Assembly: GCA_002898535.1 (NCBI GenBank)
Contig: BEHN01000005.1
Location: forward strand, 35,439-99,438
DNA length: 64,000 nucleotides
Direction of reading: 5' to 3'
DNA from: a bacterium HR11
GTDB lineage: Bacteria; Acidobacteriota; HRBIN11
Shown here: positions 2,096 to 63,295 of the stretch, piece by piece
How the letters are laid out: each line of letters begins with the position of its first letter
How positions within the stretch are numbered: the first letter of the stretch is position 1
The notes under the pieces: generated by a model
What the model was told of the DNA's origin: nothing
Seen by the model: only the letters and a program-made list of their open reading frames with translations
Database searches by the model: none
Program-made: the position numbers and the translations under genes

Positions 2096-2182
2096 CTTAG
2101 CAGAGCCGTTCGGTCGGGAGAAATGCGGTTCCCATCCGGGAAAAACGGTGGCCCGGCGATCTCGATTGTTCAAGCTTGTTAA

Positions 2183-2355
2183 GGATGACACCGCCATGAC
2201 GGGCGGTGTTCAGAGGGGATGACACCGCCATCCCTGGCGGTGTTCGGAGCGGATGACACCGCCATGGCTGGCGGTGTTCAGATGGGATTGACACCGCCAT
2301 CTCTGGCGGTGTTCGGAGGGGATTGACATGGCCATGACGGGCGGTGCATGAGGAG
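2183..2355 (+). repeat. tandem array of five 34-35 bp hairpin units (GGATGACACCGCC-ATGACG-GGCGGTGTTCAGAGG)
   Basis: GAT phase markers at 2184, 2218, 2252, 2286 and 2321. Each unit is an 8-bp inverted repeat ACACCGCC/GGCGGTGT with a variable 6-nt loop. There are no spacers. Confidence 0.85.
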
Positions 2356-2435
2356 GACGCCCGCAGGACGGCGGGCTCTCTACGAAAGGCACCGGCATGA
2401 CGGCCGGTGGGCCGGGGATCGACGCCCGTCTCTCG

Positions 2436-2560
2436 ACCTGCCCATCTGCCGACCTGCCCATCTGCCCACCTGCCCACCTGCCAAATGCCCATCGCCCGAC
2501 CGGCCGACCTGCCCACCTGCCCATCTGCCCACCTGCCCACCTGCCCAACTGCCGAATGCC
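2436..2560 (+). repeat. tandem octamer array CTGCCCAY (about 15 units)
   Basis: Direct reading: ctgcccat ctgccgac ctgcccat ctgcccac ctgcccac ... The same octamer arrays recur at 5391-5449, 7105-7235, 10417-10475, 10860-10950, 22462-22500, 23205-23270, 56798-56830 and 63150-63180. Confidence 0.85.
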
Positions 2561-2837
2561 TGAGACATCGTGCCTTCGTGGAGGCGCCCTTTCCGCTTCC
2601 CATCGCACTTCTCACCTCCCGGACGGCTCTGTTAGGGATGTTCTCATGGGGTTTGCCTTTCGGGCAGGTGTGTGGTAGATTAGGCCTATCCACGCGTCGT
2701 CGGGCACGGGCCATGGTGCCCTGGGAGGGCCGGATGAGGGGAAGGAGGACTTCTCCGACGGGGAGGGGCGTGGTTTCTCCGCAAAGTCGTCGGATTCGGC
2801 CCTGCCTGGACTGATTCCTCAGACGCAGGGACTCCTT

Positions 2838-4050: not shown

Positions 4051-4123
4051 TCCAAGCCCCACTCGTCGGAGAGCGGGGTCGCAGCCATTTGTCCAAGCCC
4101 CGCTCGGTAGAGCGGGGTCGCAA
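4051..4123 (+). repeat. two tandem REP-like hairpins (TCCAAGCCCCGCTC-nnnn-GAGCGGGGTCGCA)
   Basis: Copies at 4051-4083 and 4092-4123. The same CCCCGCTC/GAGCGGGG palindrome recurs at 9377-9398, 12290-12320, 37002-37025, 37735-37755 and 37865-37890. Confidence 0.75.
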
Positions 4124-5390: not shown

Positions 5391-5449
5391 TGGGAATTCG
5401 GTAATTCGGCAGTTCGGCAGATGGGCAGATAGGCCGGTGGGCATTTGCA
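5391..5449 (-). repeat. octamer/heptamer array (GGCAGWT, GGGCAGAT), reverse orientation of the CTGCCCAY type
   Basis: Direct reading in the gap between the GNAT-like gene and glmU. Confidence 0.7.
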
Positions 5450-6984: not shown

Positions 6985-7027
6985 AGCCTGCCTCCCTGAT
7001 GACGGTCCCAGGTGCCAGGAAAGATAA

Positions 7028-7449
7028 CACAGCCGTTCGGTTCGTGAGAATGGCGTCAGAACAATCTTTTCTATCCCCCGGAAAGCGCGATGTTTCAAGC
7101 ATTCGGCGGGTGGGCAGTCGGCCGACGGGCAGGTGGGCAGGTCGGCAGATGGGCAGGTGGCAAATGGGCAGGTGGGCAGATGGGCAGTCGGCAGGTCGGC
7201 AGATGGGCATTTGGCAGGTGGGCAGGTCGAGAGACGGGCGTCGATCCCCGGCACACCGGCCGTCATGCCGGTGGCTTCCGTAGAGAGCCCGCCGTCATGG
7301 GGGCGTCATCTTCGTGAACCGCCCGTCCTGGCCGGGTCGATCCCCTCCGAACACCGCCCGTCATGGCGGTGTCATCCTTAGCAAATCGAGATCGCCGGGC
7401 CACCGTTTTCCCGGATGGGAACCGCATTTCTCCCAACCGAACGGCTCTG
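7028..7449 (-). mobile_element. A-type composite element, copy A2 (inverted, 422 bp; one hairpin unit, long octamer array)
   Basis: Termini CACAGCCGTTCGG (7028-7040) and CCGAACGGCTCTG (7437-7449). The L-module at 7375-7449 is the reverse complement of 2101-2190. Confidence 0.65.
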
Positions 7450-7453
7450 ATAA

Positions 7454-7796
7454 CAGAGCCGTTCGGCCCGTGAGAATGGCGTCGGAACAACCTTTCCCAT
7501 CGCCCGGGGAGCCCGATGTTTCAAAGGAACGGAGGGATGGACCATAGACCCCAGACCATAGACCGGCTTGGGCCCAGGGGACCATGGTCTATGGTCCATG
7601 GTCCGTGGTCTGGGGTCCGATATCGAGGGTCCGATCCCGGTCTCGTCGGATTTATGAGACTGGTTCGATGGAAGGATAATCCCGACCGGCCCGTCGGCCC
7701 AAGACCGTGGCTCGTCCCTCCGTCCCTTCAAAAACCGCCGCCCCGAAGGGTCGGAAAAGCCGATCCGTTCGGGATTCTCACGGACCAAAGGCTCTG
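7454..7796 (+). mobile_element. B-type MITE-like element, copy B1 (343 bp)
   Basis: Left terminus CAGAGCCGTTCGG (7454-7466), right terminus ...CAAAGGCTCTG (to 7796). ~75-nt end modules flank a GACCAYR heptamer hairpin and a conserved GATATCGAGGGTCCGATCCCGGTCTCGTCGGATTTATGAGAC module. Collinear with the reverse complement of 47442-47768. Confidence 0.75.
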
Positions 7797-8348
7797 CCAA
7801 GCGCCTTCCCTTCCCGTACCCTCCCGGGGTCTGGGGTCCGGTACCCGGGAGCTGTCGGGATTCTTCGGCGGCCACTCGAAGGTCACCGGCTGGCCGACCG
7901 ACAGCTTCCACTTCCGGACGGACCCGGCCGGGACCTCGAGGACGTATCGGGCCCGCCGGAGTGGCGCATAGGTCGGGCATGGGTCCGCCTTGCAGGGCGG
8001 GACGTCTTCCAGGATGAAGGCGACCGTCTTGTCCGAACCGATCCATATCATGTCGAGGGGGATCCGGGTGTTCTTCATCCAGAAGGGCCAGAAGTCTTCG
8101 GTATCGAATACGAAGAGCATTCCCCGGTCGGCCGGCAGGCGGGTCCGGAACATGAGACCCCGCTGGCGGGCCGCGTCCGTCGCCGCCACCTCGACGGTGA
8201 TACACACGCCCTTCTTGACGCACAGCCGGATTTCGGGCAGTTTCTCGGCCTCGCGCTCGGCGGTCCGGCCGGCCGACCCGTTCAGGCCGAGGGCTACCGA
8301 TGCAACGATGACCCATGGCGGCAATCGGAAAATCCATCGAGACCGCAT
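7728..8348 (-). CDS. DUF192 domain protein with signal peptide
   Basis: MRSRWIFRLPPWVIVASVALG signal-like N-terminus, then GLMFR...MLFVF...FWMKNTRIPLDMIW DUF192 core. ATG 8348 is preceded by GAGGTG. The last 22 codons and the stop lie inside element B1. Confidence 0.75.
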   Translation of the reverse strand: MRSRWIFRLPPWVIVASVALGLNGSAGRTAEREAEKLPEIRLCVKKGVCITVEVAATDAARQRGLMFRTRLPADRGMLFVFDTEDFWPFWMKNTRIPLDMIWIGSDKTVAFILEDVPPCKADPCPTYAPLRRARYVLEVPAGSVRKWKLSVGQPVTFEWPPKNPDSSRVPDPRPREGTGREGAWQSLWSVRIPNGSAFPTLRGGGF

Positions 8349-9157: not shown

Positions 9158-9376
9158 CCCGATAGGCGTACTGAAAGGCACCCGCATGACGGCGGGCTCT
9201 ATCGAATGGCGAACGGCGAGTAGCGAACAGCGAATCGTCTGGAAGTTGAATCGGTGGTCGTTACGGCGTGCCGCCATCCCGCCGTCCCGTCGAAATGGCG
9301 ACCCCGCTCTCAGGCGAGCGGGGCGGGGATGCTATCCGCCCGACTGCCGGATGCCCGACTTACCGAATGGCCCCGG

Positions 9377-9455
9377 ACCCCGCTCTTGCGAGCGGGGCTT
9401 GGAGTTCATTCCGCATTCCTGTCCTGCATCCTGCATCTTGTAGCCTGGCATCCTG
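9377..9455 (+). repeat. E-type composite repeat: REP-like hairpin plus CCTGCAT heptamer array
   Basis: ACCCCGCTCTTGCGAGCGGGGC, then ATTCCGCATTCCTGTCCTGCATCCTGCATCTTG. Same architecture at 37002-37128 and 37865-38046, and inverted at 20880-20960. Confidence 0.7.
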
Positions 9456-9480: not shown

Positions 9481-10413
9481 ATGCCGCCCTCTCCCGTCGG
9501 CGTCCTCGTGATGGCTTACGGAAGTCCGCCCTCGATGGACGACGAGGCCATCTACGCTTACCTGCGTCACATCTTGCAGTTTTACCGCCGGACGGACCCC
9601 GACCCCGAGGCCGTGGCCCACTTGAAAGAACGCTATCGGGCCATCGGCGGCTCCCCCCTGTACGGCATCACGGAGCGCCTCGCCGCCGGTCTCCAGCAGG
9701 CCCTGGAACGGGCCTCGCCGGGGCGCTTTCGCGTATACTGGGCGATGAAGCATTCACCGCCTTTTATCGAGGACGTCGTCCCCCGGATGGCCCGGGACGG
9801 CCTCGACCGGGCCATTGGCGTGGCCCTGGCACCCTTCCGTTCCCGCTTGAGTACGGACGGCTACTACCGGGTCGTGCAGGAAGCCAATCAGGGCTTGACG
9901 AACCCGATGGCGTGGACCTTCGCCGACGACTGGCACCTACATCCCCTGTTCCTGGCCTTATGGCAGAGCCGCATCGAAGACGCCCGTCGGGGTCTCCCGG
10001 AGACGGCCCTCGTCGTCTTCACGAATCACAGCCTGCCCGAACGGGTCCGCCGGTGGGGCGACCCCTATCCGACCCAGTTCGAGGCGACGGCCCGGGTCCT
10101 GGCCGAGCGGTGCCGCCTGCCGCACTGGACGATAGCCTACCAGAGCGCCGGCGGCGGCTCTGAACCCTGGCTGGGCCCCGACCTGATCGAGGTCCTTCGG
10201 GCCTATCGAGAAGGCGGCGGGACCCACGTACTGGCGGCCCCCATCGGGTTCCTGATGGACCACCTGGAGGTCCTGTACGACATCGACGTCGAGGCCCAGG
10301 CCGAGGCCCGGTCGATGGGCCTCCACCTCGTCCGGACGCCCATGCCCAACGACGACCCCCGGCTGATCGACCTGCTGGCGGACGTCGTGACGAGGAAGGC
10401 GGTAAGGCAATAA
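9481..10413 (+). CDS. hemH: ferrochelatase
   Basis: 310 aa with VLVMAYGSP N-terminus and family-typical ...FTNHSLP... and ...PIGFLMDHLEVLYD... motifs. Confidence 0.85.
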   Translation: MPPSPVGVLVMAYGSPPSMDDEAIYAYLRHILQFYRRTDPDPEAVAHLKERYRAIGGSPLYGITERLAAGLQQALERASPGRFRVYWAMKHSPPFIEDVVPRMARDGLDRAIGVALAPFRSRLSTDGYYRVVQEANQGLTNPMAWTFADDWHLHPLFLALWQSRIEDARRGLPETALVVFTNHSLPERVRRWGDPYPTQFEATARVLAERCRLPHWTIAYQSAGGGSEPWLGPDLIEVLRAYREGGGTHVLAAPIGFLMDHLEVLYDIDVEAQAEARSMGLHLVRTPMPNDDPRLIDLLADVVTRKAVRQ

Positions 10414-10528
10414 GGCAGATGGGCAGGTCGGCAGATAGGCCGTCGGCAGATGGGCCGTCGGCAAGTGGGCAGGCAGGGGAGGGATACCCGTGCGGGTGGC
10501 TCCCTTGACCCGGGTAATAGTTCGTTAT

Positions 10529-10955
10529 CAGAGCTGTTCGGTTGGGAGAAATGCGGCTCCTATCCGGGAAAACGGTGGCCCGGCGACCTCGATTTTTCAA
10601 GCTTGTGAAGGATGACACCACCATGACTGGCGGTGTTCAAAGGGAATGACACCGCCATGGCTGGCGGTGTTCGGAGGGAATGACACCGCCATGACTGGCG
10701 GTGTTCAGAGGGGATGACACCGCCATGACTGGCGGTGTTCAGAGGGGATCGACCCGGCCAGGACGGGCGGTGCATGAGGAGGACGCCCGCAGGACGGCGG
10801 GCTCTCTACAGAAGCCACCGGCAGGACGGCCGGTGTCCCGAGGATCAACGCCCGTCACCCGACCTGCCCATCTGCCGACCTGCCGACTGCCCACCTGCCC
10901 ACCTCCCCATCTGCCAACTGCCTATCTGCCCACCTGCCGACCTACCCACCTGCCC
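10529..10955 (+). mobile_element. A-type composite element, copy A3 (right terminus missing, abuts rlmI start)
   Basis: CAGAGCTGTTCGG at 10529-10541, then L-module, 4+1 hairpin units, middle and octamer array, collinear with A1. No right inverted repeat before ATG 10968. Confidence 0.6.
10610..10780 (+). repeat. tandem array of four 34-bp hairpin units plus one degenerate unit
   Basis: Phase markers at 10611, 10645, 10679, 10713 and 10747. Same unit as 2183-2355. Confidence 0.85.
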
Positions 10956-12155: not shown

Positions 12156-12386
12156 GTATCGGGGATTCGGGAATTCGGGAGCTCGGGAGTTCGGCAATAA
12201 GGCAGTTCGGGAATTCGGCCCTTCGGGAGGGCCGTTCGACGGCCGACGTAGAAAACAAGGGGGGCATCCATCGTTCCCGGATGGCCGCAGCCCCGCTCTA
12301 ACGAGCGGGGCTGGGATGAAGACGGTCGGCCGGCCCCCCAATGCCCGAGTTCCCGAACTCCCGGATTGCCGAATTCCTGAATGGCC

Positions 12387-13196: not shown

Positions 13197-13367
13197 CCGA
13201 CCATAGACCATGGACCATAGACCCCTGGGCCCCAGCCGGTCTATGGTCTGGGGTCCATGGTCTATGGTCCATGGTCGGATTTATGAGCCCACCTCTTTGA
13301 AAAATCGTGCTTCCCGGGCGTTGGGAAGGGTTGTCCCGACGCCATTCTCACGAACCGAACGGTTCTG
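13197..13367 (-). repeat. partial B-type element (heptamer hairpin plus one end module)
   Basis: GACCATAGACCATGGACCATAGACC..CCGGTCTATGGTCTGGGGTCC hairpin and end module ...GACGCCATTCTCACGAACCGAACGGTTCTG (13355-13367). Confidence 0.65.
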
Positions 13368-17184: not shown

Positions 17185-20100
17185 ATGGCGACCCGAAATC
17201 CCAGTTTTCTGGACTTGGATTACAGCCGCTACAACTTCCGGGATACCGTCGAATACGTCTACCGGACCCCAAAGGGCCTGACGCGGGAGATCGTGGCCGA
17301 GATCTCGGCCATCAAGGGCGAGCCCGAGTGGATGCGGGACTTCCGCCTGCGGGCCTACGAGATCTTCATCCGGAAGCCCATGCCGACGTGGGGCGCCGAC
17401 CTGAGTGGGGTCAACTTCGACGAGTACACGTACTACCTGCGGCCGACGGACCGGAAGGGCCGGACCTGGGACGAGGTCCCCGAGGAGATCCGGCGGACCT
17501 TCGAGCGGCTCGGCATCCCCGAGGCCGAGCGCAAGTTCCTGGCCGGCGTCGGCGCCCAGTATGAGTGCTTGGCCGGGGATACCCGTGTGTTCACCCACCG
17601 GGGGCCCGTGCCGATTCGGGACGTTCAGCCCGGCGATATCGTTTTTTCGTTTGACGAAGACCAGGGACGCCTCGTCCCGGCGCGTGTCAAGGCCCTGGCG
17701 TATAAGGGGGAACGCGAAGTCTTTGAGGTGAAGGTCGGGACCCGAAAACTTAAGGCGACGGCCAATCATCCCTTCCTGGTCCTGGAATACGAGCGGGCGC
17801 CGGGTCGGCGGCGGGGTCGATACCGGCGGACTTGGAAGTACCTTTATGAGTTAAAGCCTGGAGACCTCGTCGCCGTGGCGAAGCGTCTCCCAGATGTTGG
17901 CCGCCCCTATCGTCTGGAACGGCCGGAGGCGCCGGACGGTCGGGGGTGGCGGTATAACCCCATCGCCCTGCCGGAAGAGACGTCTCCTGACCTCATGTGG
18001 TGGCTGGGGCTTTACGTCGGGGACGGGACGATCCATCGGGATGGGCCTCGAAAGGCTCGGGTAGAATTGGCGATCCCGGCTTCAGACACGGCTCTGCGGG
18101 GCGAACTCCAGCGGGTCACCACCCGCCTGTTTGGGGTCCCGGCGAGAAATGGGGATGCCCATCGAATGACCGTTTATTCGACCCTGCTGGCCCGTTACTT
18201 GGAACAGAACGGGTTCGACGGGGATGCGCGTACGAAGCGAGTCCCGTCCTGGGTCTTCACCTTGCCCCGGGACCAGGTCTTAAGCTTCATCGGCGGATAT
18301 GTCGATGCCGATGGGTATGTCCGGTCGCACCCCAAGAGTCATGACGTCATCCTGACCAGTGTGAACAAGCCCTTGCTTCAGGATGTACAGGCCCTTTGCG
18401 TCCAGAGTGGCCTGGCTACGTCTCACATCCATCGTTTTGAGTCGAAGCATCCTTTGGAACCGACGCGGGCCATCGTCGGCTACCGACTTCAAATTTCGGG
18501 AGAGGTGGAGCAAATCGGAGTCCGGTCGCCCCAGCGAATGAATCGGTTGGGCCTAAAGAAGTACTATCATGATTACTCCAGTGCTCACGGGACGACCTTC
18601 CGGGACCACGTTAACGAGGACATCGGCTTCGTGCGGGTCGACTCTATCACGCCGGCCGGGACGGAAGCCGTATATGACATCGAGGTCGAGGGACCTCATA
18701 ACTTCGTGGCCGAGGGTCTGATCGTTCACAACTCGGAGGTCGTGTACCACCACATCCGGGAGGACCTGGCCAAGAAGGGCGTCATCTTTGTCGATACCGA
18801 CACGGCCGTCCGGGAGTATCCGGACCTGGTCCGCCCGTACTTTGGAACGGTCGTCCCGCCGGAGGACAACAAGTTTGCGGCCCTCAACAGCGCCGTCTGG
18901 AGCGGCGGGTCGTTCGTCTACGTCCCGGCGGGCGTGCGGGTCGACATCCCCCTTCAGGCGTACTTCCGGATCAACGCCGAGAACGTCGGCCAGTTCGAGC
19001 GGACGCTCATCATCGCCGAAGAGGGGGCCTACGTCCATTACATCGAGGGTTGTCTGCCGGCCGGCGAGCAGGTTAGCGTCGGCGACCGCTGGGTCAACGT
19101 CGAGAGCATCAAGCCGGGCGACTTGGTCGTCGCCCACACCGGTCGTAAGGCTCGGGTCCGGGCCGTCATGGTTCGACCCTACCGCGGTGACATGCTCACG
19201 ATCCGACCGGTCTCCCCGTACAACGCCTTCCGGCTGACGCCGGAGCACCCGGTATGGGTCGTCCGTCGGCGAGACGTCCTCGTCCGGCGCCGTCCCCGTA
19301 ACGGCTGGCTCCCGGAGGCCGACACGCAAAAGCTTCGGGCGGCTTTGCCGCAATATGTCCCGGCCGGTGAGCTGGAGGTCGGCGACTTCCTGGTCTTCCC
19401 GAAAGTGCGGTCGGAGGGCCATAACCCGAAGTACTCCCCTCAGCTCCTGAAGCTCCTGGGTTACTACCTGGCCGAGGGATCGGCGTTCGTCCATGGGAAA
19501 CCGACCGTCTCCTTTACATTTGGGGACCATGAAACAGACGTCATCGCAGAAGTCGTCTCGCTGATCCGGGAGCTGACGGGTCGTCATCCCTACGTCGTAC
19601 CCTTGAAGGGCCGTCATGCCGTGAATGTGATCGTGCAGTCGGAAGAGCTCATGAACTTGTGTGTCGAGGCTTGTGGTAAAGGAGCGGCGGACAAGCGGCT
19701 GAGCGAAGAACTCATGAAGCTTCCGCCCGAGCAAATTCGACCCCTCCTGGAGGCCTACTTCCGGGGGGACGGGAACGTCTGCGACAAAGGCAACAGCATC
19801 ATGTACCGGGCCGCTACGGCCTCGGAGAAGCTGGCCCAACAGATTCAGGAACTGTTGGCCCGGCAAGGAATCTTCGCCAGCATTCAGGTCCGGCCGGGCG
19901 GTGTCGACATGGTCCAGGGTCGGCGCATCCGACGCAAGGACCAGTACATCATTGTTTATACGCTCGACAAGCGGTGGAGCTTGGTCCGGGAGACGGATGA
20001 CTACTTCCTCGTCCCGATCCGGGCTATCGAGCGAACCCCTTACGAGGGCTTCGTGTTCAACCTGGACGTGGAGGGTCTTCAGTCCTATCTCGTCCGGGGC

Positions 20101-20823
20101 TTTGCCGTGCACAACTGCACGGCGCCCATCTATTCCAAGGACTCGCTCCACTCGGCCGTCGTCGAGATCATCGCCAAGCGGGGCGCCCACGTCCGGTACA
20201 CGACGATCCAGAACTGGTCGAAGAACGTCTACAACCTCGTGACGAAGCGGGCCGTCGCTTACGAAGACGCCACCGTCGAATGGATCGACGGGAATATGGG
20301 GTCCAAGGTCACGATGAAGTACCCGTGTGTGTACTTGCTGGGCAAGGGGGCGAAGGCCGAAATCCTGTCGGTCGCTTACGCCGGGGCCGGCCAGCATCAG
20401 GACTCGGGCGGCAAGGTCATCCACGGGGCACCCTACACGACCTCGACGATCACGTCCAAGTCCATCAGCAAGGACGGCGGTCGGACGACCTACCGGGGCC
20501 TCGTGAAGGTCCCGAAGGGGTCTGTCGGCGTGAAGGTCAACGTCCGGTGCGACGCCTTGATCCTGGACGAGAAGTCCCGCTCGGACACGTACCCCTACAT
20601 GGAGATCGAGGAAGAGCGGGTGACGATCGCCCATGAGGCGACCGTCGGCAAGATCAGCGACGACCAGATCTTCTACCTGATGTCGCGGGGCCTGACGGAG
20701 GCCGAGGCCCTGGCGTTGATCGTCCTGGGCTTCATCGAACCCTTTGCGAAAGTCTTACCGATGGAATATGCCATCGAGTTGAATCGGCTGATTCAGCTCG
20801 AAATGGAGGGGGCGGTCGGTTAA
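17185..20823 (+). CDS. sufB: Fe-S cluster assembly protein SufB precursor containing two inteins (extein sum 468 aa)
   Basis: Exteins read ...GVGAQYE|SEVVYHHIRED...YIEG|CTAPIYSKDSLHSAVVEI...EMEGAVG and are collinear with canonical SufB. Strong RBS TAGGAGG. Confidence 0.9.
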   Translation: MATRNPSFLDLDYSRYNFRDTVEYVYRTPKGLTREIVAEISAIKGEPEWMRDFRLRAYEIFIRKPMPTWGADLSGVNFDEYTYYLRPTDRKGRTWDEVPEEIRRTFERLGIPEAERKFLAGVGAQYECLAGDTRVFTHRGPVPIRDVQPGDIVFSFDEDQGRLVPARVKALAYKGEREVFEVKVGTRKLKATANHPFLVLEYERAPGRRRGRYRRTWKYLYELKPGDLVAVAKRLPDVGRPYRLERPEAPDGRGWRYNPIALPEETSPDLMWWLGLYVGDGTIHRDGPRKARVELAIPASDTALRGELQRVTTRLFGVPARNGDAHRMTVYSTLLARYLEQNGFDGDARTKRVPSWVFTLPRDQVLSFIGGYVDADGYVRSHPKSHDVILTSVNKPLLQDVQALCVQSGLATSHIHRFESKHPLEPTRAIVGYRLQISGEVEQIGVRSPQRMNRLGLKKYYHDYSSAHGTTFRDHVNEDIGFVRVDSITPAGTEAVYDIEVEGPHNFVAEGLIVHNSEVVYHHIREDLAKKGVIFVDTDTAVREYPDLVRPYFGTVVPPEDNKFAALNSAVWSGGSFVYVPAGVRVDIPLQAYFRINAENVGQFERTLIIAEEGAYVHYIEGCLPAGEQVSVGDRWVNVESIKPGDLVVAHTGRKARVRAVMVRPYRGDMLTIRPVSPYNAFRLTPEHPVWVVRRRDVLVRRRPRNGWLPEADTQKLRAALPQYVPAGELEVGDFLVFPKVRSEGHNPKYSPQLLKLLGYYLAEGSAFVHGKPTVSFTFGDHETDVIAEVVSLIRELTGRHPYVVPLKGRHAVNVIVQSEELMNLCVEACGKGAADKRLSEELMKLPPEQIRPLLEAYFRGDGNVCDKGNSIMYRAATASEKLAQQIQELLARQGIFASIQVRPGGVDMVQGRRIRRKDQYIIVYTLDKRWSLVRETDDYFLVPIRAIERTPYEGFVFNLDVEGLQSYLVRGFAVHNCTAPIYSKDSLHSAVVEIIAKRGAHVRYTTIQNWSKNVYNLVTKRAVAYEDATVEWIDGNMGSKVTMKYPCVYLLGKGAKAEILSVAYAGAGQHQDSGGKVIHGAPYTTSTITSKSISKDGGRTTYRGLVKVPKGSVGVKVNVRCDALILDEKSRSDTYPYMEIEEERVTIAHEATVGKISDDQIFYLMSRGLTEAEALALIVLGFIEPFAKVLPMEYAIELNRLIQLEMEGAVG
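17566..18732 (+). mobile_element. SufB intein 1 (389 aa) with LAGLIDADG homing-endonuclease domain
   Basis: Starts CLAGDTRVF, block B TANHPF, ends GLIVHN followed by +1 Ser. LAGLIDADG motifs LGLYVGDGTI and IGGYVDADGYV. Inserted in the conserved AQYE|SEVVY site. Confidence 0.85.
19051..20115 (+). mobile_element. SufB intein 2 (355 aa) with LAGLIDADG homing-endonuclease domain
   Basis: Starts CLPAGEQVSV, block B LTPEHPV, ends GFAVHN followed by +1 Cys. LAGLIDADG motifs LGYYLAEGSA and LEAYFRGDGNV. Inserted in the conserved EG|CTAP site. Confidence 0.85.
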
Positions 20824-22540: not shown

Positions 22541-22644
22541 GTAGGGATGCGATGGGGATGCGATGGGGATGCGATCGCATCACTACGCATCACTACGCAT
22601 CACTACGCATCTCTATGCATCCCTATGCGTCTCTATGCATCATC
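22541..22644. repeat. long imperfect hairpin made of tandem 11-mers (GGGGATGCGAT x3) facing tandem 10-mers (GCATCACTAC x3 plus variants)
   Basis: Direct reading. The symmetry centre is GCGATCGC at 22571-22578. Confidence 0.8.
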
Positions 22645-22805
22645 AGATGGGCTGAAAAGCCGAGTTCATCGGGATGCTCACGGACCCAACGGTCCTGTTA
22701 CCTACGCCGGTCCATCGGCCGACCCGCCTCATGACCTTACTACCGTATCGTCTTCGTGCTACAATATCCGACCGATGGTGGAATCCCCCTCAGCCGGTGG
22801 CGGCT

Positions 22806-23201: not shown

Positions 23202-23392
23202 CAGAGCCGTTCGGCAGGTCAGCAGATGGGCAGGTCGGGAGATAGGCAGTCGGCAGATGGGCAGACGAGGAGATGGGAAACCATTCGCCATTCGCTATTC
23301 GCCGTTCGATGTTCACCTTTGATTCGGGCAGGGGGAAAGGTCGTCCTGAAGCTGTTCCTCACGAATCAAACGGCTCTGGTAGGAGAGGCCCT

Positions 23393-37001: not shown

Positions 37002-37128
37002 CGCGACCCCGCTCTTGCGAGCAGGCCTGGGATAAAGGGCCTCGGGCGAGCGGGACCTGAGACCGGATTCCGCATTCCCGCCTTGCATCCTGCATCCTGC
37101 ATCCTGCATTCTGTATCCTACATCCTCC
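37002..37128 (+). repeat. E-type composite repeat (REP-like hairpin, spacer, CCTGCAT x ~6)
   Basis: CGCGACCCCGCTCTTGCGAGC... then CCTTGCATCCTGCATCCTGCATCCTGCATTCTGTATCC (37081-37128). Confidence 0.7.
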
Positions 37129-37660: not shown

Positions 37661-37864
37661 CGAACGGCGAATGGCGAGTGGCGGGTGGCGAACGGCCAAG
37701 GGTCCATGGCCCGCATCTCACGGCTTCGCTTCGGCGAGCGGGGCGGGGATAAAGGGCATAGACCCCGGAACCCCTTAACCTGCATCTTGACCCCTGGGAC
37801 CTCGGACCCCAGGCCTGTCCTGCATCGACCTGTCCGATGGCCGAATCCCGGATTGCCGTACGGC

Positions 37865-38046
37865 CGCGACCCCGCTCTCACGAGCGGGGCTGGGATGAAA
37901 AGGCTCATCGGCCGACCGGCCTCCCTGCCGAACTCCCAAAGGCCGAAGGACGCCGGACCTCTCGCCCGGGCCCCGAGACTTAGTGCCCCATTCCCGGCTT
38001 GCATCCTGCATCTTGCATCGTGCATTCTTCTTGTATCCTGCTCCAC
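37865..38046 (+). repeat. E-type composite repeat (REP-like hairpin, spacer, CTTGCAT/CCTGCAT array)
   Basis: CGCGACCCCGCTCTCACGAGCGGGGCTGGGATGAA ... CATTCCCGGCTTGCATCCTGCATCTTGCATCGTGCATTC. Same orientation as 37002-37128. Confidence 0.7.
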
Positions 38047-38611: not shown

Positions 38612-39340
38612 TCAGATCGGTGACCGCCAGGCGTTCGGGAGGGACGGGACCGGTCGTACATCGGGGACCGGCCCCGGACAGGGTGCCTCGGCCGCCTCGA
38701 CCCATTCGACGGACGGAAAGCCAAAGACGGCCTGAAAGCATTCTGCATACACTCGGGCCACGACCGGAAGCGGCGGGCACGCCGGTCCGACCAGACGGGC
38801 CAGGCTCGTCACGGGGTCCGGCAGGCCGCACGGGACGATCCAGTCAAAGGCCGCCAGGTCCGGATTCACGTTGAAGGCAAACCCATGATAGGTGACCCAG
38901 CGGGCGACCCGGATGCCGATGGCCGCAATCTTTGTCCCGCCGACCCAGACGCCCGTCTTTCCGGGCCACCGGCCGGCCGAGAGGCCGTACCGACCGCAGA
39001 GCTCGATCAGGCTATCTTCCAGGCGACGCAGGTAGCGATGCACGTCCCGACCGAATTCGTTCAGGTCCAGGACGGGATACCCGACCAACTGACCCGGTCC
39101 GTGGTACGTCACCTTTCCACCCCGGCCGACCTGCCATATCTCGACGCCCGCCTGAGCCAACCTCTCAGGGGACTGCCGGAAGAGGTCCCAGCCCCCGCCG
39201 GTCCCGACGGTCACGACGGGGTCGTGTTCTAACAGTAGGAGCGTCGCATGACGATGGACCCGCCCGGCGGCCCAGGCCTGCCAGGCGAGGCCTTCCCGGT
39301 AGCTCCGACGCCCGAGCCAAAACGCTTGGAGGACTTGCAT
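38612..39340 (-). CDS. lipB: lipoyl(octanoyl) transferase
   Basis: RGGKVTYHGPGQLVGYP and KIAAIGIRV motifs. Start MQVLQAFWLG at 39340. The upstream 54 codons are repeat read-through. Confidence 0.85.
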   Translation of the reverse strand: MQVLQAFWLGRRSYREGLAWQAWAAGRVHRHATLLLLEHDPVVTVGTGGGWDLFRQSPERLAQAGVEIWQVGRGGKVTYHGPGQLVGYPVLDLNEFGRDVHRYLRRLEDSLIELCGRYGLSAGRWPGKTGVWVGGTKIAAIGIRVARWVTYHGFAFNVNPDLAAFDWIVPCGLPDPVTSLARLVGPACPPLPVVARVYAECFQAVFGFPSVEWVEAAEAPCPGPVPDVRPVPSLPNAWRSPI

Positions 39341-39720
39341 GCGCCGTTCGGCCTTCGAGGTCGGGTAGGCGGACGGTCTGCACCGGGTCCCTGGCCGCCG
39401 GCCACTCGACCGACTCCCGGTACGCCTTAACAGAGCCGTTGCGTTCGTGAGAATCCAGATAGATTCGGCTTTTCCGACGACCCGGGAAGCACGGTTTTTC
39501 AAACAAAGCGACGGAGTGATGGAGTGACGAAGTAAAATTTGGACCGCTCGACCCAGCAGCCAGCTATTTTCTGAACTCCGTCACTTGCTTGAAAAACCGT
39601 CATTCTCGATGGGTCCAAAAAGCCGATCCAATCAGCGTCTTCACGGGTGCCACCGCCCTGTTAAGACTCGGCAGGCCATCCGCGACGCCGGGGACGACTT
39701 CCCGGCGCCCCAGGGAGACG

Positions 39721-40662
39721 CTACTGAGCCAGCCGAAGGCGCCACCGGACCTGCATGACTCGCCACCCGTCCGGCATCCGCACCAGCGCCTGCCCATCCC
39801 GGAGTCTCAGGACGGTGCCCGGAGTCGGCCACTCCCCGACCCGACGGCCCTGATCATCGTACAGGAGTAACCGCGACGGGGGCACGGGGAACACGCCCGG
39901 GACGCCTGCAAATTCTCTTTCGACGACAAGCCACCCTATCCCGGGCATGAAGTCGACGGCCCCGGCACCGTGGTCGGGAGAACTCAACAGGAAGCGACCC
40001 CGAGCCAAGACTTCACCCTCCGAACTGAAGACGGCCCACCGGTCCTTCGCGACCGCATAGATGCGGTCGCCCCGGACCCAGACGTGATACCAGTCCCGAG
40101 GGCCCAGGTGCATCCCACGCCCTGACGAAAGCCCGAATTCCTCGGCGGCCCCGGCACTCCACAGGCGGGTCGAGCCTCGAAAGGCATGGACCAGCTTGTC
40201 GGCCGTGTCGTCCTGCCGGAGACCCGGACCGATGACGTATATATGTCCCGCCTCGTCCACGTCAAAATCCAACACCGCTACGCCTACCTCCACGTCCGCC
40301 AGGCGCTCCCCTCGGGCGTCGCCCTGGAGGATGCGAAATCGACTCCCATCCCGGTAGCCCAAGTACCGACGGCCGTCCCGGCCCCACCGGAGGACCGGGG
40401 CTCCCCTCTCCAGAATCGGAGCCGGTCGGATGAAATCCGACACGGCCCCCGTCGTGAGGTCGAAGACCTGAGCGATCGGTCCCGAAGGCAGATACCGGAC
40501 GAGGGCCACTGCTTGGGGCGTGAAATCCATACCGGTAAAGGGTTCCCTCATCCAGGCCACGGCCGGCCCGCCAGCGACAGGGACCAGCTCGACCTCCTGA
40601 GCCGCCAGGGGGAACCCCGATAGGAATAGAGGTAGAAGAAGGGACCATAAGCGAGTCTGCAT
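39721..40662 (-). CDS. secreted hypothetical protein (beta-rich)
   Basis: MQTRLWSLLLPLFLSGFPLAAQ signal peptide and GGAGGTG RBS. No recognisable motif. Confidence 0.55.
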   Translation of the reverse strand: MQTRLWSLLLPLFLSGFPLAAQEVELVPVAGGPAVAWMREPFTGMDFTPQAVALVRYLPSGPIAQVFDLTTGAVSDFIRPAPILERGAPVLRWGRDGRRYLGYRDGSRFRILQGDARGERLADVEVGVAVLDFDVDEAGHIYVIGPGLRQDDTADKLVHAFRGSTRLWSAGAAEEFGLSSGRGMHLGPRDWYHVWVRGDRIYAVAKDRWAVFSSEGEVLARGRFLLSSPDHGAGAVDFMPGIGWLVVEREFAGVPGVFPVPPSRLLLYDDQGRRVGEWPTPGTVLRLRDGQALVRMPDGWRVMQVRWRLRLAQ

Positions 40663-40907
40663 CGTCACACCTCCTTCCCCTCCCTTGACCCCGTCTCCAC
40701 CCCGAGTCTCAACGCTTTTCAAGGCCATGGCGGGCAGGGCCCCCCATATGCTATCGCTTCGGGGATGCGGCAGACATATATCCGTCCATCAGGACCTATA
40801 CACTCATAGGGGTTAGGGAATGAAAGACAGCTGTCCAACCCCTCCCGCGTCAGCAGACAATAGCTCCCCCACACATAGAAGTTGCACGGAGGCGGACAGT
40901 AAAATAA

Positions 40908-41021
40908 CTACGGAGCTTCCTGATAGCATGAAAATAGGGGTGGCCCCACCAAGAAGAGGAAGCCCACCAAGACGCCTGCCAGCCATGGACCTCGAACACG
41001 TATCTCCTTTTCCCGTGCCAT
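40908..41021 (-). CDS. 37-aa small membrane peptide (hypothetical)
   Basis: Own translation: MAREKEIRVRGPWLAGVLVGFLFLVGPPLFSCYQEAP. GGAGGA RBS lies 4 nt upstream, and a near-consensus promoter sits 32 nt upstream of the ATG. Confidence 0.4.
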   Translation of the reverse strand: MAREKEIRVRGPWLAGVLVGFLFLVGPPLFSCYQEAP

Positions 41022-41052
41022 GTGTTCCTCCGGCATAAGCAGGTATGGTACT

Positions 41053-41080
41053 ATATTAGGCTTTGCAAAAAAAAAGTCAA
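41053..41080 (-). promoter_or_regulatory. near-consensus sigma70 promoter
   Basis: Minus strand: TTGACT (41075-41080), 16-nt spacer (T8 GCAAAGCC), TAATAT (41053-41058). Confidence 0.55.
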
Positions 41081-41364
41081 GTCCATAGAACTCATGTGAC
41101 TGTTTTAAAGTCGGCGGGTGAACGGGCCGGAAAAGCCCATCCCAGGTTCCTGGACTCCGACCGAGGGTTGGAGTCCAGGAAAAACTGCGCCAGTCCCGCC
41201 TACTCGACCGATTACCCACCAAAAGTGAAACAGTCACGAACCCATCTCAAAAACTTCTCCCTGGGGAAAAAGACCCAGATGGAAAAGGTCGACCCGACAC
41301 CCTTCTCCCGGGCGCAACCGCTCTGCTGTTCGTCGTCGCGGTGCAGACGGGGACGTCTGGGCTC

Positions 41365-42300
41365 CTATTTTCCGAATCGTTCGATCAGGGCCGCCGCCGC
41401 CGAGTACGGGTCCAGGGTCCCGGCGGCGACGGCCTGAATCCATTCTTGAACCCGGGGGTCCTGCAGACGGGCTTCGATGCCCTGCAGGACCAGGGTCCGC
41501 ACGGCCTCGGTCAATCGCAGGAAAGCGTACTGCCGGCGGCGCCGGTCCCACTCGCCCGACCGTTCCAGGAAGGCCCGGTGCTCCCGCAAAGCCTGGACCA
41601 ACTCGTCGAGACCCGCCCCCCGGGTCGCATCCGTCAGGACGATGGGCGGCCGCCAGGGCCGAGCCTCCGGGGCCAGGCTGAGGACACCCCGGAGCTCTTG
41701 CCGCATGCGCTCCGCATCGCCCCGGTCCTTCTTATTGATCACGAAGACGTGGGCGATCTCCATCAGGCCCGCCTTGAGGGCCTGGACCTCGTCGCCCAAG
41801 CCGGGCATCAGGACAAGCAGGACCGTATGGGCCACGCGGGCCACGTCCGTCTCGTCCTGCCCGACGCCGACCGTCTCGACCAGGATGACGTCCATCCCGT
41901 AAGCGTCCATCAGGTCGATGATGTCAAAGGTCGAACGGGAGAGGCCTCCCATCTGGCCGCGCGTGGCCACGCTCCGGATGAAGACCCCCGGGTCGCCCTC
42001 GTGGTCCTGCATGCGGATCCGGTCCCCCAGGATGGCCCCGCCCGTGAAAGGGCTCGTCGGGTCGACGGCGACGACCCCGACCGTCCGGCCCTCGGTCCGA
42101 AAGGCCCGAATCAAGTGATTGATGAGACTACTCTTGCCCACGCCGGCCGGTCCTGTCACGCCGATGACCCAGGCCCGACCGGTTCGGTGGTACACCCGCT
42201 TCAGGACTTCACGCCCAACCTCAGGGGCATCGTCCAGCCACCGAATGACCCGGGCCAGGGACCGCACGTCACCGAGTTCGACGACTTCTGAGGGCCGCAT
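41365..42300 (-). CDS. meaB: methylmalonyl-CoA mutase-associated G3E GTPase MeaB/ArgK
   Basis: GVTGPAGVGKSSLI P-loop, ...VETVGVGQ..., ...INKKD. Confidence 0.85.
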   Translation of the reverse strand: MRPSEVVELGDVRSLARVIRWLDDAPEVGREVLKRVYHRTGRAWVIGVTGPAGVGKSSLINHLIRAFRTEGRTVGVVAVDPTSPFTGGAILGDRIRMQDHEGDPGVFIRSVATRGQMGGLSRSTFDIIDLMDAYGMDVILVETVGVGQDETDVARVAHTVLLVLMPGLGDEVQALKAGLMEIAHVFVINKKDRGDAERMRQELRGVLSLAPEARPWRPPIVLTDATRGAGLDELVQALREHRAFLERSGEWDRRRRQYAFLRLTEAVRTLVLQGIEARLQDPRVQEWIQAVAAGTLDPYSAAAALIERFGK

Positions 42301-42585
42301 CCCATTGCCTCATGTCTGAATGTCTGGCGGTCGCCGCTATAAGACCACAGACCATGGACTGTAGGCCTACCCGGGCGAACGGGGTCACCTTGTCTTGAAA
42401 CAGGACCGGCCTCTTCCTCCTGCCGAGTAAGCCGGAAAGACGGGGACCTATCCTTCACCCCGCATAGGAGAGAGAAGAGGCAACGCGATATGTGGGCAGG
42501 TCCCTGGTCTGTGGTCTCAAGACGAGGCGACCCGGTTCGCTCAGGCAGGTCTATAGTCCGTGGTCTATGGTCTGTGGTCCCTGGT

Positions 42586-43344
42586 CTATGGTCCATGGTC
42601 TACAGTCTCCCTGGCCTCTGCCGTAAGCCGCAGAAAGACCTCTTCCAGGTCCCGGTCTTCGGCACCGGCCGCCCGACGCAGGTCGTCCATCGTGCCGACG
42701 GCGACGAGGCGGCCCTGGTGGAGGACGGCGACCGTGTCGCAGACTTCCTCGGCGATGCTCAACAAGTGGGTCGACAGGAAGACGGCATGGCCCCGGGCGG
42801 CCTTCTGACGGACCCAGGTCTTGACCATTCGGACGGCCAGGGGGTCGAGGCCGATGATGGGCTCGTCGATGATCCAGACGGGCGTGTCCCGCAGGTGGGC
42901 CATGGCAAACATCAGGCGCTGGCGCATGCCGTAGGAGTACTGTTCGATCAGCTCATCGGCCCACTCCCGGAGGCCGACGAGGTCGAGGGCCGCCTCGACG
43001 GCCTTCGGGTCCGGCGAGTTCCGGTCCTGGACGGCGCTGACAAAGCTGAGGAGTTCCCGGGCCGTCATCTTGGGATACAGGTACCCCTGGTCGGGGATGT
43101 ATGAGAAGAGCCGTCGGGCCTCCCGGGGATGACGGTGGACGTCCAGGCCGCCGATGAAGACCGAGCCCGTCGTCGGCCGCAGGAGGCCGGTCATGATGCG
43201 GATCGTCGTCGTCTTGCCGGCCCCGTTGGGGCCGAGGTATCCAAAGACGGTCCCGTAAGGCACGGTCAAGTCTAAGGGGTAGAGGGCCTGGAAGGGGCCG
43301 TAGCGCTTGGAGACCCCGTGGAGCTCAATGGCGTTCCCACTCAT
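42586..43344 (-). CDS. orphan ABC transporter ATP-binding protein (ABC-2/DrrA-like) with atypical signature motif
   Basis: GPNGAGKTT Walker A, IPDQ Q-loop, YSYGMRQR in place of LSGGxxQR, WIIDEP Walker B, LSTH H-loop. ATG 43344 overlaps the EI 3' end. The last 6 codons and the stop lie in a heptamer repeat. Confidence 0.8.
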   Translation of the reverse strand: MSGNAIELHGVSKRYGPFQALYPLDLTVPYGTVFGYLGPNGAGKTTTIRIMTGLLRPTTGSVFIGGLDVHRHPREARRLFSYIPDQGYLYPKMTARELLSFVSAVQDRNSPDPKAVEAALDLVGLREWADELIEQYSYGMRQRLMFAMAHLRDTPVWIIDEPIIGLDPLAVRMVKTWVRQKAARGHAVFLSTHLLSIAEEVCDTVAVLHQGRLVAVGTMDDLRRAAGAEDRDLEEVFLRLTAEARETVDHGP

Positions 43345-47441: not shown

Positions 47442-47768
47442 GGGAGCCGTTCGGTCCGTGAGAATCCCGGTGGGATCGGCTTTTCCGACCCTTCGGGGAG
47501 ACGATTTTTTGAAGGAACGGAGTAACGAAGTGACCAGCAACGGTCTTGGGCCGATGGGCCGGTCGGGATCATCCTTCCATCGAACCAGTCTCATAAATCC
47601 GACGAGACCGGGATCGGACCCTCGATATCGGCCCCCAGACCACGGACCATGGACCCCTGGGCCCAAGCCGGTCTATGGTCCATCCCTCCGTCCCTTTGAA
47701 ACATCGTGCTTCCCGGGGGTGCTGGAAAGGGCCGTTGGGACGCCCTTCTCACGAACCGGACGGCTCTG
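47442..47768 (-). mobile_element. B-type MITE-like element, copy B2 (327 bp, inverted relative to B1)
   Basis: Termini GGGAGCCGTTCGG (47442-47454) and CCGGACGGCTCTG (47756-47768). The reverse complement aligns end to end with 7454-7796. Confidence 0.75.
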
Positions 47769-55523: not shown

Positions 55524-55775
55524 GTGTTGACGCCTCACGCTAAATTTCAGATGCGGCGCCGGGGCCTTCGTCCGGCCCTCGTCCGACGGGTCCTGACGGT
55601 ACCGGAGCAGGTCATCGAACTCCGGCCGGGTCGCGCGGTGTTTCAGTCTCGGGTGCGGTCGGGGGGCCGGGTCTACCTCGTGCGGGTGGTCGTGGACGTC
55701 GACCGCCGTCCGGCGGAGGTCGTCACGGTCTACCGCACGAGCAAGGTGGCCAAATACTGGAAGGAGTCGTCATGA
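55524..55775 (+). CDS. DUF4258-like putative toxin
   Basis: (V)LTPHAKFQMRRRGLRPALVRRVL...VVVDVDRRPAEVVTVYRT fits the DUF4258 pattern (xHAxxRMxxRGI...VITVY). GTG 55524. ATGA overlap with the next gene. Confidence 0.6.
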   Translation: MLTPHAKFQMRRRGLRPALVRRVLTVPEQVIELRPGRAVFQSRVRSGGRVYLVRVVVDVDRRPAEVVTVYRTSKVAKYWKESS

Positions 55776-56002
55776 AGGTCATCTACGACCCCAGGACCGA
55801 CACGCTCAGCGTGATTTTCCGGGAGGACCGGCCGGTCGCCGAGAGCGATGAGGACAAGCCGGGCGTGATCCTCGACTACGACGAGCAGGGGAACCTGGTC
55901 TCGCTGGAGATCCTGGACGCATCGAAGCGGGTGACTGACGTGTCCCACGTTCAGTTCCAGACGGTCGGGGAGTCGGCGGTGCCCAGCTCTTCGGCCCGTT
56001 GA
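55772..56002 (+). CDS. DUF2283-like putative antitoxin
   Basis: MKVIYDPRTDTLSVIFRE...GVILDYDEQGNLVSLEILDASKR is the classic DUF2283 pattern (YDxEADxLYI...DxDxxGxxVGIEIL). Confidence 0.65.
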   Translation: MKVIYDPRTDTLSVIFREDRPVAESDEDKPGVILDYDEQGNLVSLEILDASKRVTDVSHVQFQTVGESAVPSSSAR

Positions 56003-56063
56003 ACCCCTGCTGGAAAAGGCATACACTGTCTCGATCCCGAAGCCCCCGGAGACCCGGCCATGA
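55991..56063 (+). pseudogene. relic duplicate of the secretin 3' end (last 23 codons plus stop)
   Basis: 73-nt direct repeat of 55402-55474 with 65/73 identical. In the secretin frame it reads RPVEPLLEKAYTVSIPKPPETRP*, versus ...EKEYTV... in the live copy. Confidence 0.75.
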
Positions 56064-56080: not shown

Positions 56081-56305
56081 CAGAGCCGTTCGGTTCGTGA
56101 AAACCCGCATGGATTCGGCCTGATTGGCTCATGGCTCATAGCTGATGGCTCACGGGACTATGAGCCATGAGCTATGAGCTATGAGACCATGCGGCTATGA
56201 ACCATACATCGCCCTGGCTTGTCACTCCGCCCCTTTGAAACATCGGGCTTCCCGGGCGTTGGGAAAGTTTGTTCCGACGCCATTCTCACGAACCGAACGG
56301 CTTTG
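56081..56305 (+). mobile_element. C-type MITE-like element: shared termini around a GGCTCAT/ATGAGCY heptamer hairpin
   Basis: CAGAGCCGTTCGG (56081-56093) ... CCGAACGGCTTTG (56293-56305). Arms at 56126-56153 and 56158-56205. The right end module equals the B-type end module. Confidence 0.7.
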
Positions 56306-56628
56306 AACTCGTCTCAAAAGTCCCTGATCTCAGTGAGAGAGAAGCTCTGGATCAAGGCCCTCACCCTACCCTCTCCCCCAGGGAGAGGGTTTTGAGATGA
56401 GTTGGCTCTGTTGCCATCCTGGAGCCATCGTCTCAAAAGTGGCCTCGGCGGGCCTGCCCCCCTACCGGAGCCGGTTCACCCGGTCCCAGCGCCCGGCCCT
56501 CCGGCTGGGGCGGGCCTACGACAGCGACCGCCTGAAATTTTTGGGCTCTCTTCGGCGGGCCCAGGGCCTCCGGGCCTCTCCAGAAGCCTGAAGAGGATAT
56601 CAACAGAGCCAGATGAGTTCTTTGTTAA

Positions 56629-56904
56629 CAGAGCCGTCCGGTTGGGAGAAATGCAGTTCCCATCCGGGAAAGCGGTAGCCCGGCGATCTCGATTTTTTAA
56701 GCTTATTAAGGATGACACCGCCATGACGGGCGGCGCCAAGACCGGGGGCCACCGGCATGACGGCCGGTGTTCCGGGGATAGACGCCAGTCTCCCGACCTG
56801 CCCATCTGCCCACCTGCCCAACTGCCGAATGCTTGAAGCATCGTGCTTTCGTGGAGGTGCCCTTTCCGCTTGCCATCGCACTTCTCACCTCCCGAACGGC
56901 TCTG
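56629..56904 (+). mobile_element. A-type composite element, copy A4 (short form: 1 hairpin unit, 3 octamers)
   Basis: CAGAGCCGTCCGG (56629-56641) ... CCGAACGGCTCTG (56892-56904). L-module, middle and tail are collinear with A1. Confidence 0.7.
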
Positions 56905-56933
56905 TTAAACTTCTATAGATTTGGAGGTCGGGG

Positions 56934-63136: not shown

Positions 63137-63295
63137 GCTCGTCCCTGGCCAGCAGGTGGGCAGTTCGGCAAATGGGCAGACGGTGAGTTCGCGGAGCCGT
63201 TCGGTTCGTGAAAACGGTGTCAGGATGGCCTTGCCCATTGCCCGGGAAGCACGATTTTTCAAGCATCCGGCCGATGGGGAAATGAGAGCGTATTT

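Follow-up and report, generated by a model that had tools for sequence, protein, structure and literature searches.

Correia (NEMIS) elements of Neisseria are small, non-coding and multicopy; they carry terminal inverted repeats (TIRs), duplicate a TA-containing target and lie in intergenic DNA, often near the beginning of a gene, a position that allows co-transcription or the formation of junction promoters. In Streptococcus pneumoniae, BOX elements (boxA–boxB(n)–boxC) consist of fixed end modules around an internal, hairpin-prone unit of ∼45 bp in variable number; they are also intergenic, can adopt stable secondary structure and are without clear TIRs or target-site duplications (TSDs). Here, we describe a dispersed repeat of bacterium HR11 that resembles both. 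It was analysed in a stretch of 64,000 nt (contig BEHN01000005.1, positions 35,439–99,438 of the forward strand; 66% GC), referred to below as the window, in which four copies (A1–A4) had been noticed and proposed to represent a non-autonomous mobile element. With a probability of about 80%, these copies belong to a previously undescribed, lineage-specific, mosaic family of MITEs (miniature inverted-repeat transposable elements); the tested properties of such elements, namely TIRs, TSDs, small size, absence of coding capacity, multiple copies and insertion polymorphism, were all found. The family has no sequence similarity to Correia elements, its TSD is 4 bp (NTAN) and not TA, and, whereas Correia elements are without arrays, it combines ∼80-nt subterminal modules in several variants with variable-copy tandem arrays inside. 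From BOX it differs in its explicit TIRs and TSDs, its unrelated sequences and its phylum; as a bacterial parallel to BOX with such ends, it could show how modular repeats spread.

REP/BIME palindromes and the cyanobacterial STRR sequences share with the present elements dispersed GC-rich palindromes, short heptamer or octamer arrays and an intergenic location. REPs depend on RAYT and have no TIRs or TSDs, STRR arrays are not bounded by TIRs, and HUH/RAYT-type (IS200/IS605) elements have neither terminal inverted repeats nor target duplication. In the window, by contrast, the arrays are cargo within elements bounded by TIRs and TSDs. The published definition of a REP is a 20–40-nt palindrome with a 5′ GTAG or CGTC tag (PMC3733652); the 34-bp hairpin units described below begin with GGATGAC and have no GTAG/CGTC tag at the foot of the stem, CGTC being confined to the loop as read on the opposite strand.

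Architecture of the four copies

Direct reading and alignment show that the four copies lie at the positions originally proposed and are collinear. Their common order is a terminus CAGAGCCGTYCGG, a leader of ∼85 nt (the L-module), at least one 34-bp unit, GC hairpins, an array of CTGCCCAY octamers and a tail of ∼78 nt that ends in CCGRACGGCTCTG. The 34-bp unit is GGATGAC-ACCGCC-ATnnnn-GGCGGT-GTTCRGAGG, and the further GC hairpins are GCCCGC-AGGACG-GCGGGC and CACCGGC-ATGACG-GCCGGTG. A1 (2101–2631, plus strand) is complete at 531 nt and contains an L-module (2101–2182), hairpin units (2183–2352; four canonical and one degenerate), two GC hairpins (2359–2376 and 2390–2409), an octamer array (2436–2553) and a tail (2554–2631). 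A2 (7028–7449, minus strand) is a complete, inverted copy of 422 nt with an L-module (7371–7449), one canonical unit (hairpin 7351–7372) and a degenerate unit, a hairpin at 7254–7273, octamers (7105–7227) and a B-type tail (7028–7104). A3 (10529–10955, plus strand) consists of an L-module (10529–10611), units (10612–10772), hairpins (10785–10802 and 10816–10835) and octamers (10862–10955); both direct reading and the terminal-module profile agree with the earlier observation that its right side is truncated, with no tail and no right terminus. A4 (56629–56904, plus strand) is the smallest complete copy (276 nt), with an L-module, a single unit, a single hairpin (56750–56769), 3.6 octamers (56798–56826) and a tail.

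The copies are 85–91% identical pairwise in their L-modules and 85–93% identical at the hairpin-to-octamer junction. A common tail of ∼75 nt had been proposed; this holds for A1 and A4, whose tails are 91% identical, and fails for A2, which has a different variant with 87% identity to the tail of another element (56235–56305) and 65–67% identity to the A1 and A4 tails. Unit numbers of 5, 1, 4–5 and 1 had been given previously; the canonical counts are 4, 1, 4 and 1, since what was counted fifth in A1 and A3 is a degenerate unit that A2 possesses as well. Gene calls based on GC content at third codon positions (GC3) place no gene inside the four copies.

Termini and extent of the family

The terminal inverted repeats CAGAGCCGTYCGG/CCGRACGGCTCTG bound A1, A2 and A4, along with five other elements, on both sides. 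The 13-nt terminus CAGAGCCGTTCGG, allowing up to two mismatches, occurs 31 times in the window compared with 3.9 ± 2.1 times in shuffled sequences (0 of 100 shuffles reach 31), which confirms the claim of consistent inverted termini. An nhmmer profile of the ∼85-nt terminal modules, searched on the window, placed modules at 2101/2631, 7028/7449, 7454/7796, 10529, 13367, 22697, 23202/23378, 39431/39646, 41325 (weak), 47444/47768, 56081/56305, 56629/56904, 61667, 61830 and 63193. There are thus ∼14 members or fragments in 64 kb, with element sizes of 177–531 nt. Within the window, blastn searches with A1 and A2 found the leader only in A1–A4, so that the window contains this subtype exactly four times; in this sense the four-copy element of the original prediction stands, but the prediction understated the wider picture, which includes about ten further elements or fragments with the same termini and ∼80-nt modules.

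Leader and tails align with one another over a common motif string (CAGAGCCGTTCGGT..GAGAA...CCCGG...CGAT.TTTCAAGC), which means that each element has long imperfect subterminal inverted repeats in several variants. Leader and tail are diverged forms of one ∼80-nt subterminal module that encloses the 13-nt TIR. The interiors vary by element and consist of palindromic heptamer arrays [(GACCATA)n or (TGGCTCA)n], inverted octamer arrays or ATGACG-loop hairpins. The four copies constitute one subfamily within this larger mosaic superfamily.

Target-site duplications

The four bases outside each terminus were read for the nine complete elements, of which eight are in the window and one is a copy in another genome (locus L001; see below). 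Perfect 4-bp duplications, all of the form NTAN, are present in six: A1 (TTAG/TTAG; 2097–2100 and 2632–2635), A2 (ATAA/ATAA on the plus strand or TTAT in the orientation of the element; 7024–7027 and 7450–7453), A4 (TTAA/TTAA; 56625–56628 and 56905–56908), the element at 23202–23378 (GTAG/GTAG), that at 39431–39660 (TTAA/TTAA; 39427–39430 and 39661–39664) and the L001 copy (ATAG/ATAG). The probability of identity for a random pair of window tetramers is 0.007, and NTAN accounts for 1.65% of window tetramers; six perfect TA-centred duplications are therefore far beyond chance. Duplications of this kind, 4 bp in length and centred on TA, are a signature of DDE-type insertion. Beyond the 4-bp repeats, the DNA flanking the copies is unrelated. 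A2 directly abuts a second element, B1 (7454–7796), and one ATAA (7450–7453) is common to both, an arrangement consistent with an insertion into the TA-rich border of an element that was already present.

Distribution in relatives and databases

The proteins that cluster with those of the window bear the names Acidobacteria or Acidobacteriota. Loci of relatives were fetched via cluster members of the window proteins and amount to ∼117 kb in total, partly redundant; they include L003 (87–90% nucleotide identity), L012 and L013 (84–90%), and also L006, L007 and L008. Neither terminal modules nor ATGACG-loop hairpins are present in these loci. The segment of the window that holds A2 and B1 (7000–7862, 863 nt) corresponds to 93 nt in L003, and the convergent HelY and JAB genes are separated by 517 nt of repeats in the window and by 12 nt in L007; most other intergenic regions of the window are likewise longer than in L012. 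A scan of genome contigs with a 40-nt leader pattern matched a single locus, L001, on contig JAUQPV010000210 of an Acidobacteriota metagenome-assembled genome (MAG), where a fifth copy lies at a different locus with its own TSD. For the same strain, Logan contigs (DRR101361/2) terminate within the elements, as a dispersed repeat would predict, and the family thus explains short-read assembly breaks in this organism.

The proposal of a non-autonomous mobile element is well supported by the TIRs, the 4-bp NTAN duplications on six elements, the absence of the elements at orthologous sites of the relatives and the unrelated flanking genes. Occupying ∼6% of the window and none of the loci of relatives at 86–90% nucleotide identity, the elements document a recent MITE burst in one uncultured Acidobacteriota lineage. 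Rfam returned no family match, the only hits in the window being two tRNAs, and relaxed scans gave miRNA-hairpin noise far under threshold. A leader profile (five sequences) had no match in a database of 5.8 billion proteins, nor, even at E ≤ 1, did 52 concatenated six-frame peptides from nine modules. The literature search found neither the terminus nor the run accessions in any paper and returned nothing specific on MITEs of Acidobacteria; together with the Rfam result, this agrees with the earlier statement that the repeat is not a described family. BLAST searches of plasmids and phages gave nothing related; the single hit, a (CTGCCGAC)n array in Burkholderia, is unrelated. It is an unannotated octamer array of more than 20 units in B. 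multivorans (NZ_CP143551.1; L015 1500–1740); its likeness to the octamer array is in unit composition only and is probably convergent.

Several results weigh against an assignment as a MITE family. Three complete-looking elements have imperfect or mismatching flanks: B2 (TCGA/TCAA), B1 (two of four bases match) and the element at 56081–56305 (TTAG/AACT, with no base matching). The intergenic DNA of the relatives is too diverged for the alignment of a clean empty site carrying one tetranucleotide, as found for B2 against L012. The JGI metagenome contigs gave 0 matches to the leader or to a generic tail pattern and IMG/VR gave 0 matches to three patterns, so the evidence outside the window rests on the one MAG copy. 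Pfam naming identified no transposase gene and no cognate autonomous element in the 64-kb window. Finally, covariation and a conserved loop in the hairpin units, described below, hint at a constraint and are the one feature for which a purely selfish model gives no account.

Proposed mobilization

The element would be cut out or copied in trans by a DDE-type transposase, the gene for which would lie elsewhere in the genome, and would be inserted at TA-centred tetranucleotides (NTAN, mostly TTAN) with duplication of 4 bp. Following insertion, the 34-bp unit and octamer arrays would grow or shrink by slipped-strand mispairing or unequal recombination, and whole modules, such as the tail, could be swapped among subfamilies by recombination. 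The neighbouring genes might be affected by read-through transcription or by weak junction promoters. In the IS5 subgroup the duplication is of 4 bp, at YTAR, which a TA-centred TSD of 4 bp would fit. An enzyme of IS5/PIF-Harbinger-like type, or another DDE transposase with 4-bp duplications, is possible as the mobilizing agent on the basis of the termini and TSDs, although we would not count on it.

The TIR of Tourist elements is GGCCTTGTTCGGTT and their TSD is TAA/TTA (PMC11560428; PMC2631504), and bacterial IS5 is a relative of the PIF/Harbinger transposases (PMC4482050). The terminus of the present elements, CAGAGCCGTTCGGTT with a TSD of TTAN, has GCC...GTTCGGTT in common with Tourist at a nearly equal distance from the tip, and both have a TTA-containing target; in this comparison, made by eye, a 2-nt gap is needed, the outermost bases differ (CAGA versus G) and the shared 8-mer could be chance. 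The TSDs here are also 4 bp in length (TTAG, TTAT, TTAA, GTAG and ATAG) and not the 3-bp TAA/TTA. As no transposase was found in the window, kinship with Tourist/PIF-Harbinger is only a lead; should it be true, it would connect these bacterial MITEs with the IS5/PIF-Harbinger superfamily. In the IS701 family, almost all members duplicate exactly 4 bp of the target, as found here, and their published end consensus is ---YACT-Y--YR, which is said not to represent the whole family (PMC2266710); CAGAGCCGTTCGG does not fit this consensus, having AGCC at positions 4–7 in place of YACT. A possible transposase gene at 39721–40728, within a 2-kb insert that has terminal modules at its boundaries, was rejected; it has a signal peptide, the appearance of a secreted protein and no Pfam match.

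Tandem arrays

Tandem Repeats Finder reports 4.8 copies of the 34-bp unit in A1 (2183–2346) and 4.7 in A3 (10612–10772), A2 and A4 having one unit each. The octamer copy numbers are 14.9 (A1), 15.9 (A2), 12.0 (A3) and 3.6 (A4), in line with the ∼15 down to 3 estimated earlier. The loop variant ATGACT is present only in A3, the units of A1 alternate in a two-unit pattern (TTCAGA/TTCGGA tails and ATC(C/T)CT loops) and the A1 octamer array contains a 63-nt higher-order repeat, all of which is as expected from local duplication and slippage after insertion. That the internal arrays behave as variable-number tandem repeats is thus supported only between paralogous copies, and the combination of interchangeable end modules and variable arrays makes these elements ready strain-typing loci. 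A CRISPR array was rejected as an explanation for the 34-bp units, which are directly adjacent to one another and vary only within the 6-nt loop.

Intergenic heptamer and octamer arrays of their own, without TIR modules, are present in L006 and L007. In the window, CTGCCCAY-type arrays in inverted orientation also lie outside TIR-bounded elements (5391–5443, 10406–10473 and 63152–63179), one of which precedes A3 by 55 nt and another the terminus at 63193 by 13 nt. Short-unit arrays are therefore a wider habit of the clade that is carried by the MITEs. Tandem arrays with units of 7–11 nt were further observed at 1919–2006, 7537–7610, 12159–12382, 13199–13276, 22544–22642, 37084–37126, 37998–38025, 42548–42608, 47630–47680, 56125–56200 and 61708–61740 with 62012–62046. 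They are mostly inverted pairs, for example (GACCATA)n...(TATGGTC)n, in which the units differ by site and the layout is constant; some are within TIR-bounded elements and others stand alone directly after stop codons.

Hairpin units

Constant stems (ACACCGCC/GGCGGTGT) and variable loops (ATGACG, ATCCCT, ATGGCT, ATCTCT and ATGACT) characterize the units of A1 and A3, as had been predicted. Covariation was assessed on an ungapped alignment of 18 distinct paralogous units from the four copies, the cluster at 61878–61999 and L001. Five of the eight stem pairs change on both sides with retention of pairing, and the score of 0.28 exceeds that of shuffled alignments (0.105 ± 0.024; 0 of 500 reach it) and of every slid control. 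The loop A(T/G)GACG and a 5′ GAC are conserved, and perfect hairpins with this loop number 12 in the window and one in the L001 copy. These values carry an ascertainment bias, since the units were selected as hairpins, and processes at the DNA level can keep palindromes complementary. All of the stem changes are Watson–Crick, so RNA is not distinguished from DNA.

The array of hairpin units might serve, as DNA or as RNA, for the multivalent binding of a protein with specificity for the conserved A(T/G)GACG loop or phased ATGAC motifs; on DNA such a protein could be a transposase or a nucleoid protein and on read-through RNA it could be an RNA-binding regulator. We consider this role, which is compatible with a MITE, to be unlikely. 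The covarying stems and the conserved loop with its flanking GAC are what it would lead one to expect, the ATGAC motifs are phased 11 and 23 nt apart in each 34-nt period, the loop-bearing hairpins are confined to the window and L001 when the relatives' loci are compared, and the four copies share the direction of the co-directional genes that flank them. Against this, the covariation is subject to the selection of units and the DNA-level maintenance of palindromes noted above, the number of units (1–4) is unrelated to the neighbouring gene, the four-of-four orientation has a p of only about 0.125 and no binding protein is known. If such a platform exists, the MITE would be its carrier, co-opted for regulation, and would place it ahead of housekeeping genes in this thermophile-associated lineage of Acidobacteriota as a regulatory module that is mobile and tunable through its copy number.

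Genomic setting and folding

Genes were named with Pfam. A1 lies between an rlmN-like gene and a class I/II aminotransferase gene, 206 nt before the start of the latter. A2, with B1, is between a DUF192 gene and a GlmU-like gene (43 nt to the start), A3 is between ferrochelatase and PUA/SAM methyltransferase genes (12 nt to the start at 10968) and A4 is between a small DUF2283 gene and an OmpA-family gene (29 nt to the start). The neighbours have no function in common. All four copies are situated between co-directional genes and are oriented like them, a weak bias given n = 4. More generally, every element copy mapped in the window lies within an intergenic region or at its edge, and several are just upstream of start codons.

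Scans for consensus promoters and terminators in the elements gave nothing above shuffled sequences. The right end and TSD of A2 (7024–7060, minus strand) read TTCTCA-N18-TGnTATCTT and those of A4 (56880–56920, plus strand) read TTCTCA-N18-TGnTAAACT; these sites match the σ70 consensus at eight of 12 positions, with an extended −10 TG, fall below the scan threshold, face outward and are located 29–43 nt before start codons. As a hypothesis only, such element ends could form weak junction promoters. A promoter-like site, TTGCCT-N17-TAGATT/TAGGTT, is conserved upstream of the aminotransferase gene in the window (2655–2690) and in L003 (150–185). As this site is downstream of A1, A1 is probably upstream of the gene's own promoter.

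In whole-element folds the termini are paired, and z-scores relative to shuffles are −5.0 for the A1 plus strand, −2.7 for the A4 plus strand and −5.7 for the A4 minus strand. The original prediction that stem changes in the leader keep pairing was not upheld: A3 shows two one-sided GC↔GU changes and no pair is altered on both sides, and the covariation control for the leader is uninformative (500 of 500 shuffles equal the observed score). In the tails, only two of 14 pairs covary. A G3N1–7 ×4 quadruplex motif is present on the G-rich octamer strand of A1 (2512–2546, minus strand) and A4 (56792–56819, minus strand) and is not strictly present in A2 or A3; being confined to two copies, it is not a consistent feature.

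The location of three of the four copies 12–43 nt upstream of a start codon, the sense orientation of all four and folds that are more stable than shuffles could be accommodated by a structured cis-regulatory RNA (a 5′ leader or a riboswitch-like element) or a small RNA gene, with the leader and array being needed by four genes. This is improbable. The downstream genes are functionally unrelated and their orthologues in the relatives are without the element; the leader has no compensatory change, no Rfam match rises above noise and no consensus promoter or terminator was detected; the TSDs and TIRs show insertion; and the antisense strand of A4 folds better than the sense strand.

Short GC-rich palindromes clustered in intergenic DNA also recall REP/BIME-like sequences, which would owe their spread to the action of a RAYT transposase (IS200/IS605-type, HUH) on single-stranded hairpins, and a second hairpin family, CCCCGCT-N6-AGCGGGG, is dispersed in the window too. 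The TIRs and target duplications of the elements, the units without a 5′ GTAG/CGTC tag and the lack of a RAYT gene in the window make this origin very improbable. The weakest alternative, in which the copies are immobile products of segmental duplication or of low-complexity drift of GC-rich intergenic DNA, could invoke the relatives' arrays without TIR modules and the unrelated Burkholderia array, but can be dismissed in view of the 85–93% identity over complex non-repetitive modules, the sharp edges at the termini, the flanks that are unrelated past 4 bp and the fifth copy with its own TSD at another locus of another MAG.

The CCCCGCT-N6-AGCGGGG family has five copies in the window (4098–4117, 9302–9323, 9378–9397, 12288–12313 and 37870–37889), a variant near 36990 and none in the ∼117 kb of the relatives. 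At two places (12274–12327 and 37853–37906) the hairpin is followed by CTGGGATGA.

Other members of the family

B1 (7454–7796), which adjoins A2, has tail-type modules at each end and an internal palindromic (GACCATA)n array; the interior of B2 (47442–47768) is 95% complementary to it. The DUF192 gene call enters B1: the open reading frame (ORF; 7728–7860, minus strand) has lost the stop position seen in L003, reads into B1 and stops inside it, with the addition of ∼45 residues. The element at 23202–23378 (plus strand) contains a 13-nt terminus, an inverted octamer array, heptamers and a tail; it is located in the suf operon between NifU-like and Rieske genes, the call for the latter overlapping it. 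A partial terminal module (22654–22697, minus strand; flank TTAC) lies beside the arrays at 22544–22642, between sufD and the NifU-like gene. The family thus lengthens intergenic regions, enters operons, sits beside start codons and extends an ORF.

The element at 39431–39660 has ∼80-nt inverted subterminal modules, and that at 56081–56305 has an internal palindromic array, (TGGCTCA)n/(ATGAGCC)n. The tail module at 13289–13367 (minus strand) is the terminus of a one-ended element and is preceded by a (GACCATA)n palindrome (13199–13276). At 61759–61830 (minus strand) a terminal module with the flank GTAG is followed by the ATGACG-loop hairpin units at 61878–61999, which are set between inverted (GAGGAAT)n arrays. 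At 63193–63352 (plus strand) a tail-type terminal module is followed by a second module without a terminus. The LplB–MeaB gene pair (window 38612–42300) is inverted relative to L012 (12804–14521) and is split by the 2-kb insert (39320–41370), which comprises a MITE, the gene at 39721–40728, an AT-rich stretch and a terminal-module fragment.

Other features of the window

The SufB ORF (17185–20823, plus strand; 1212 residues) contains intein splicing and LAGLIDADG homing-endonuclease domains between SufBD regions, indicating at least one intein and possibly two. Two direct repeats of 73 nt with 89% identity, one at the 3′ end of the secretin gene (55402–55474) and the other at 55991–56063, bracket a cassette of ∼590 bp with the DUF2283 gene (55772–56002). 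From this arrangement, the cassette resembles a small insertion by which the end of the secretin gene was duplicated.

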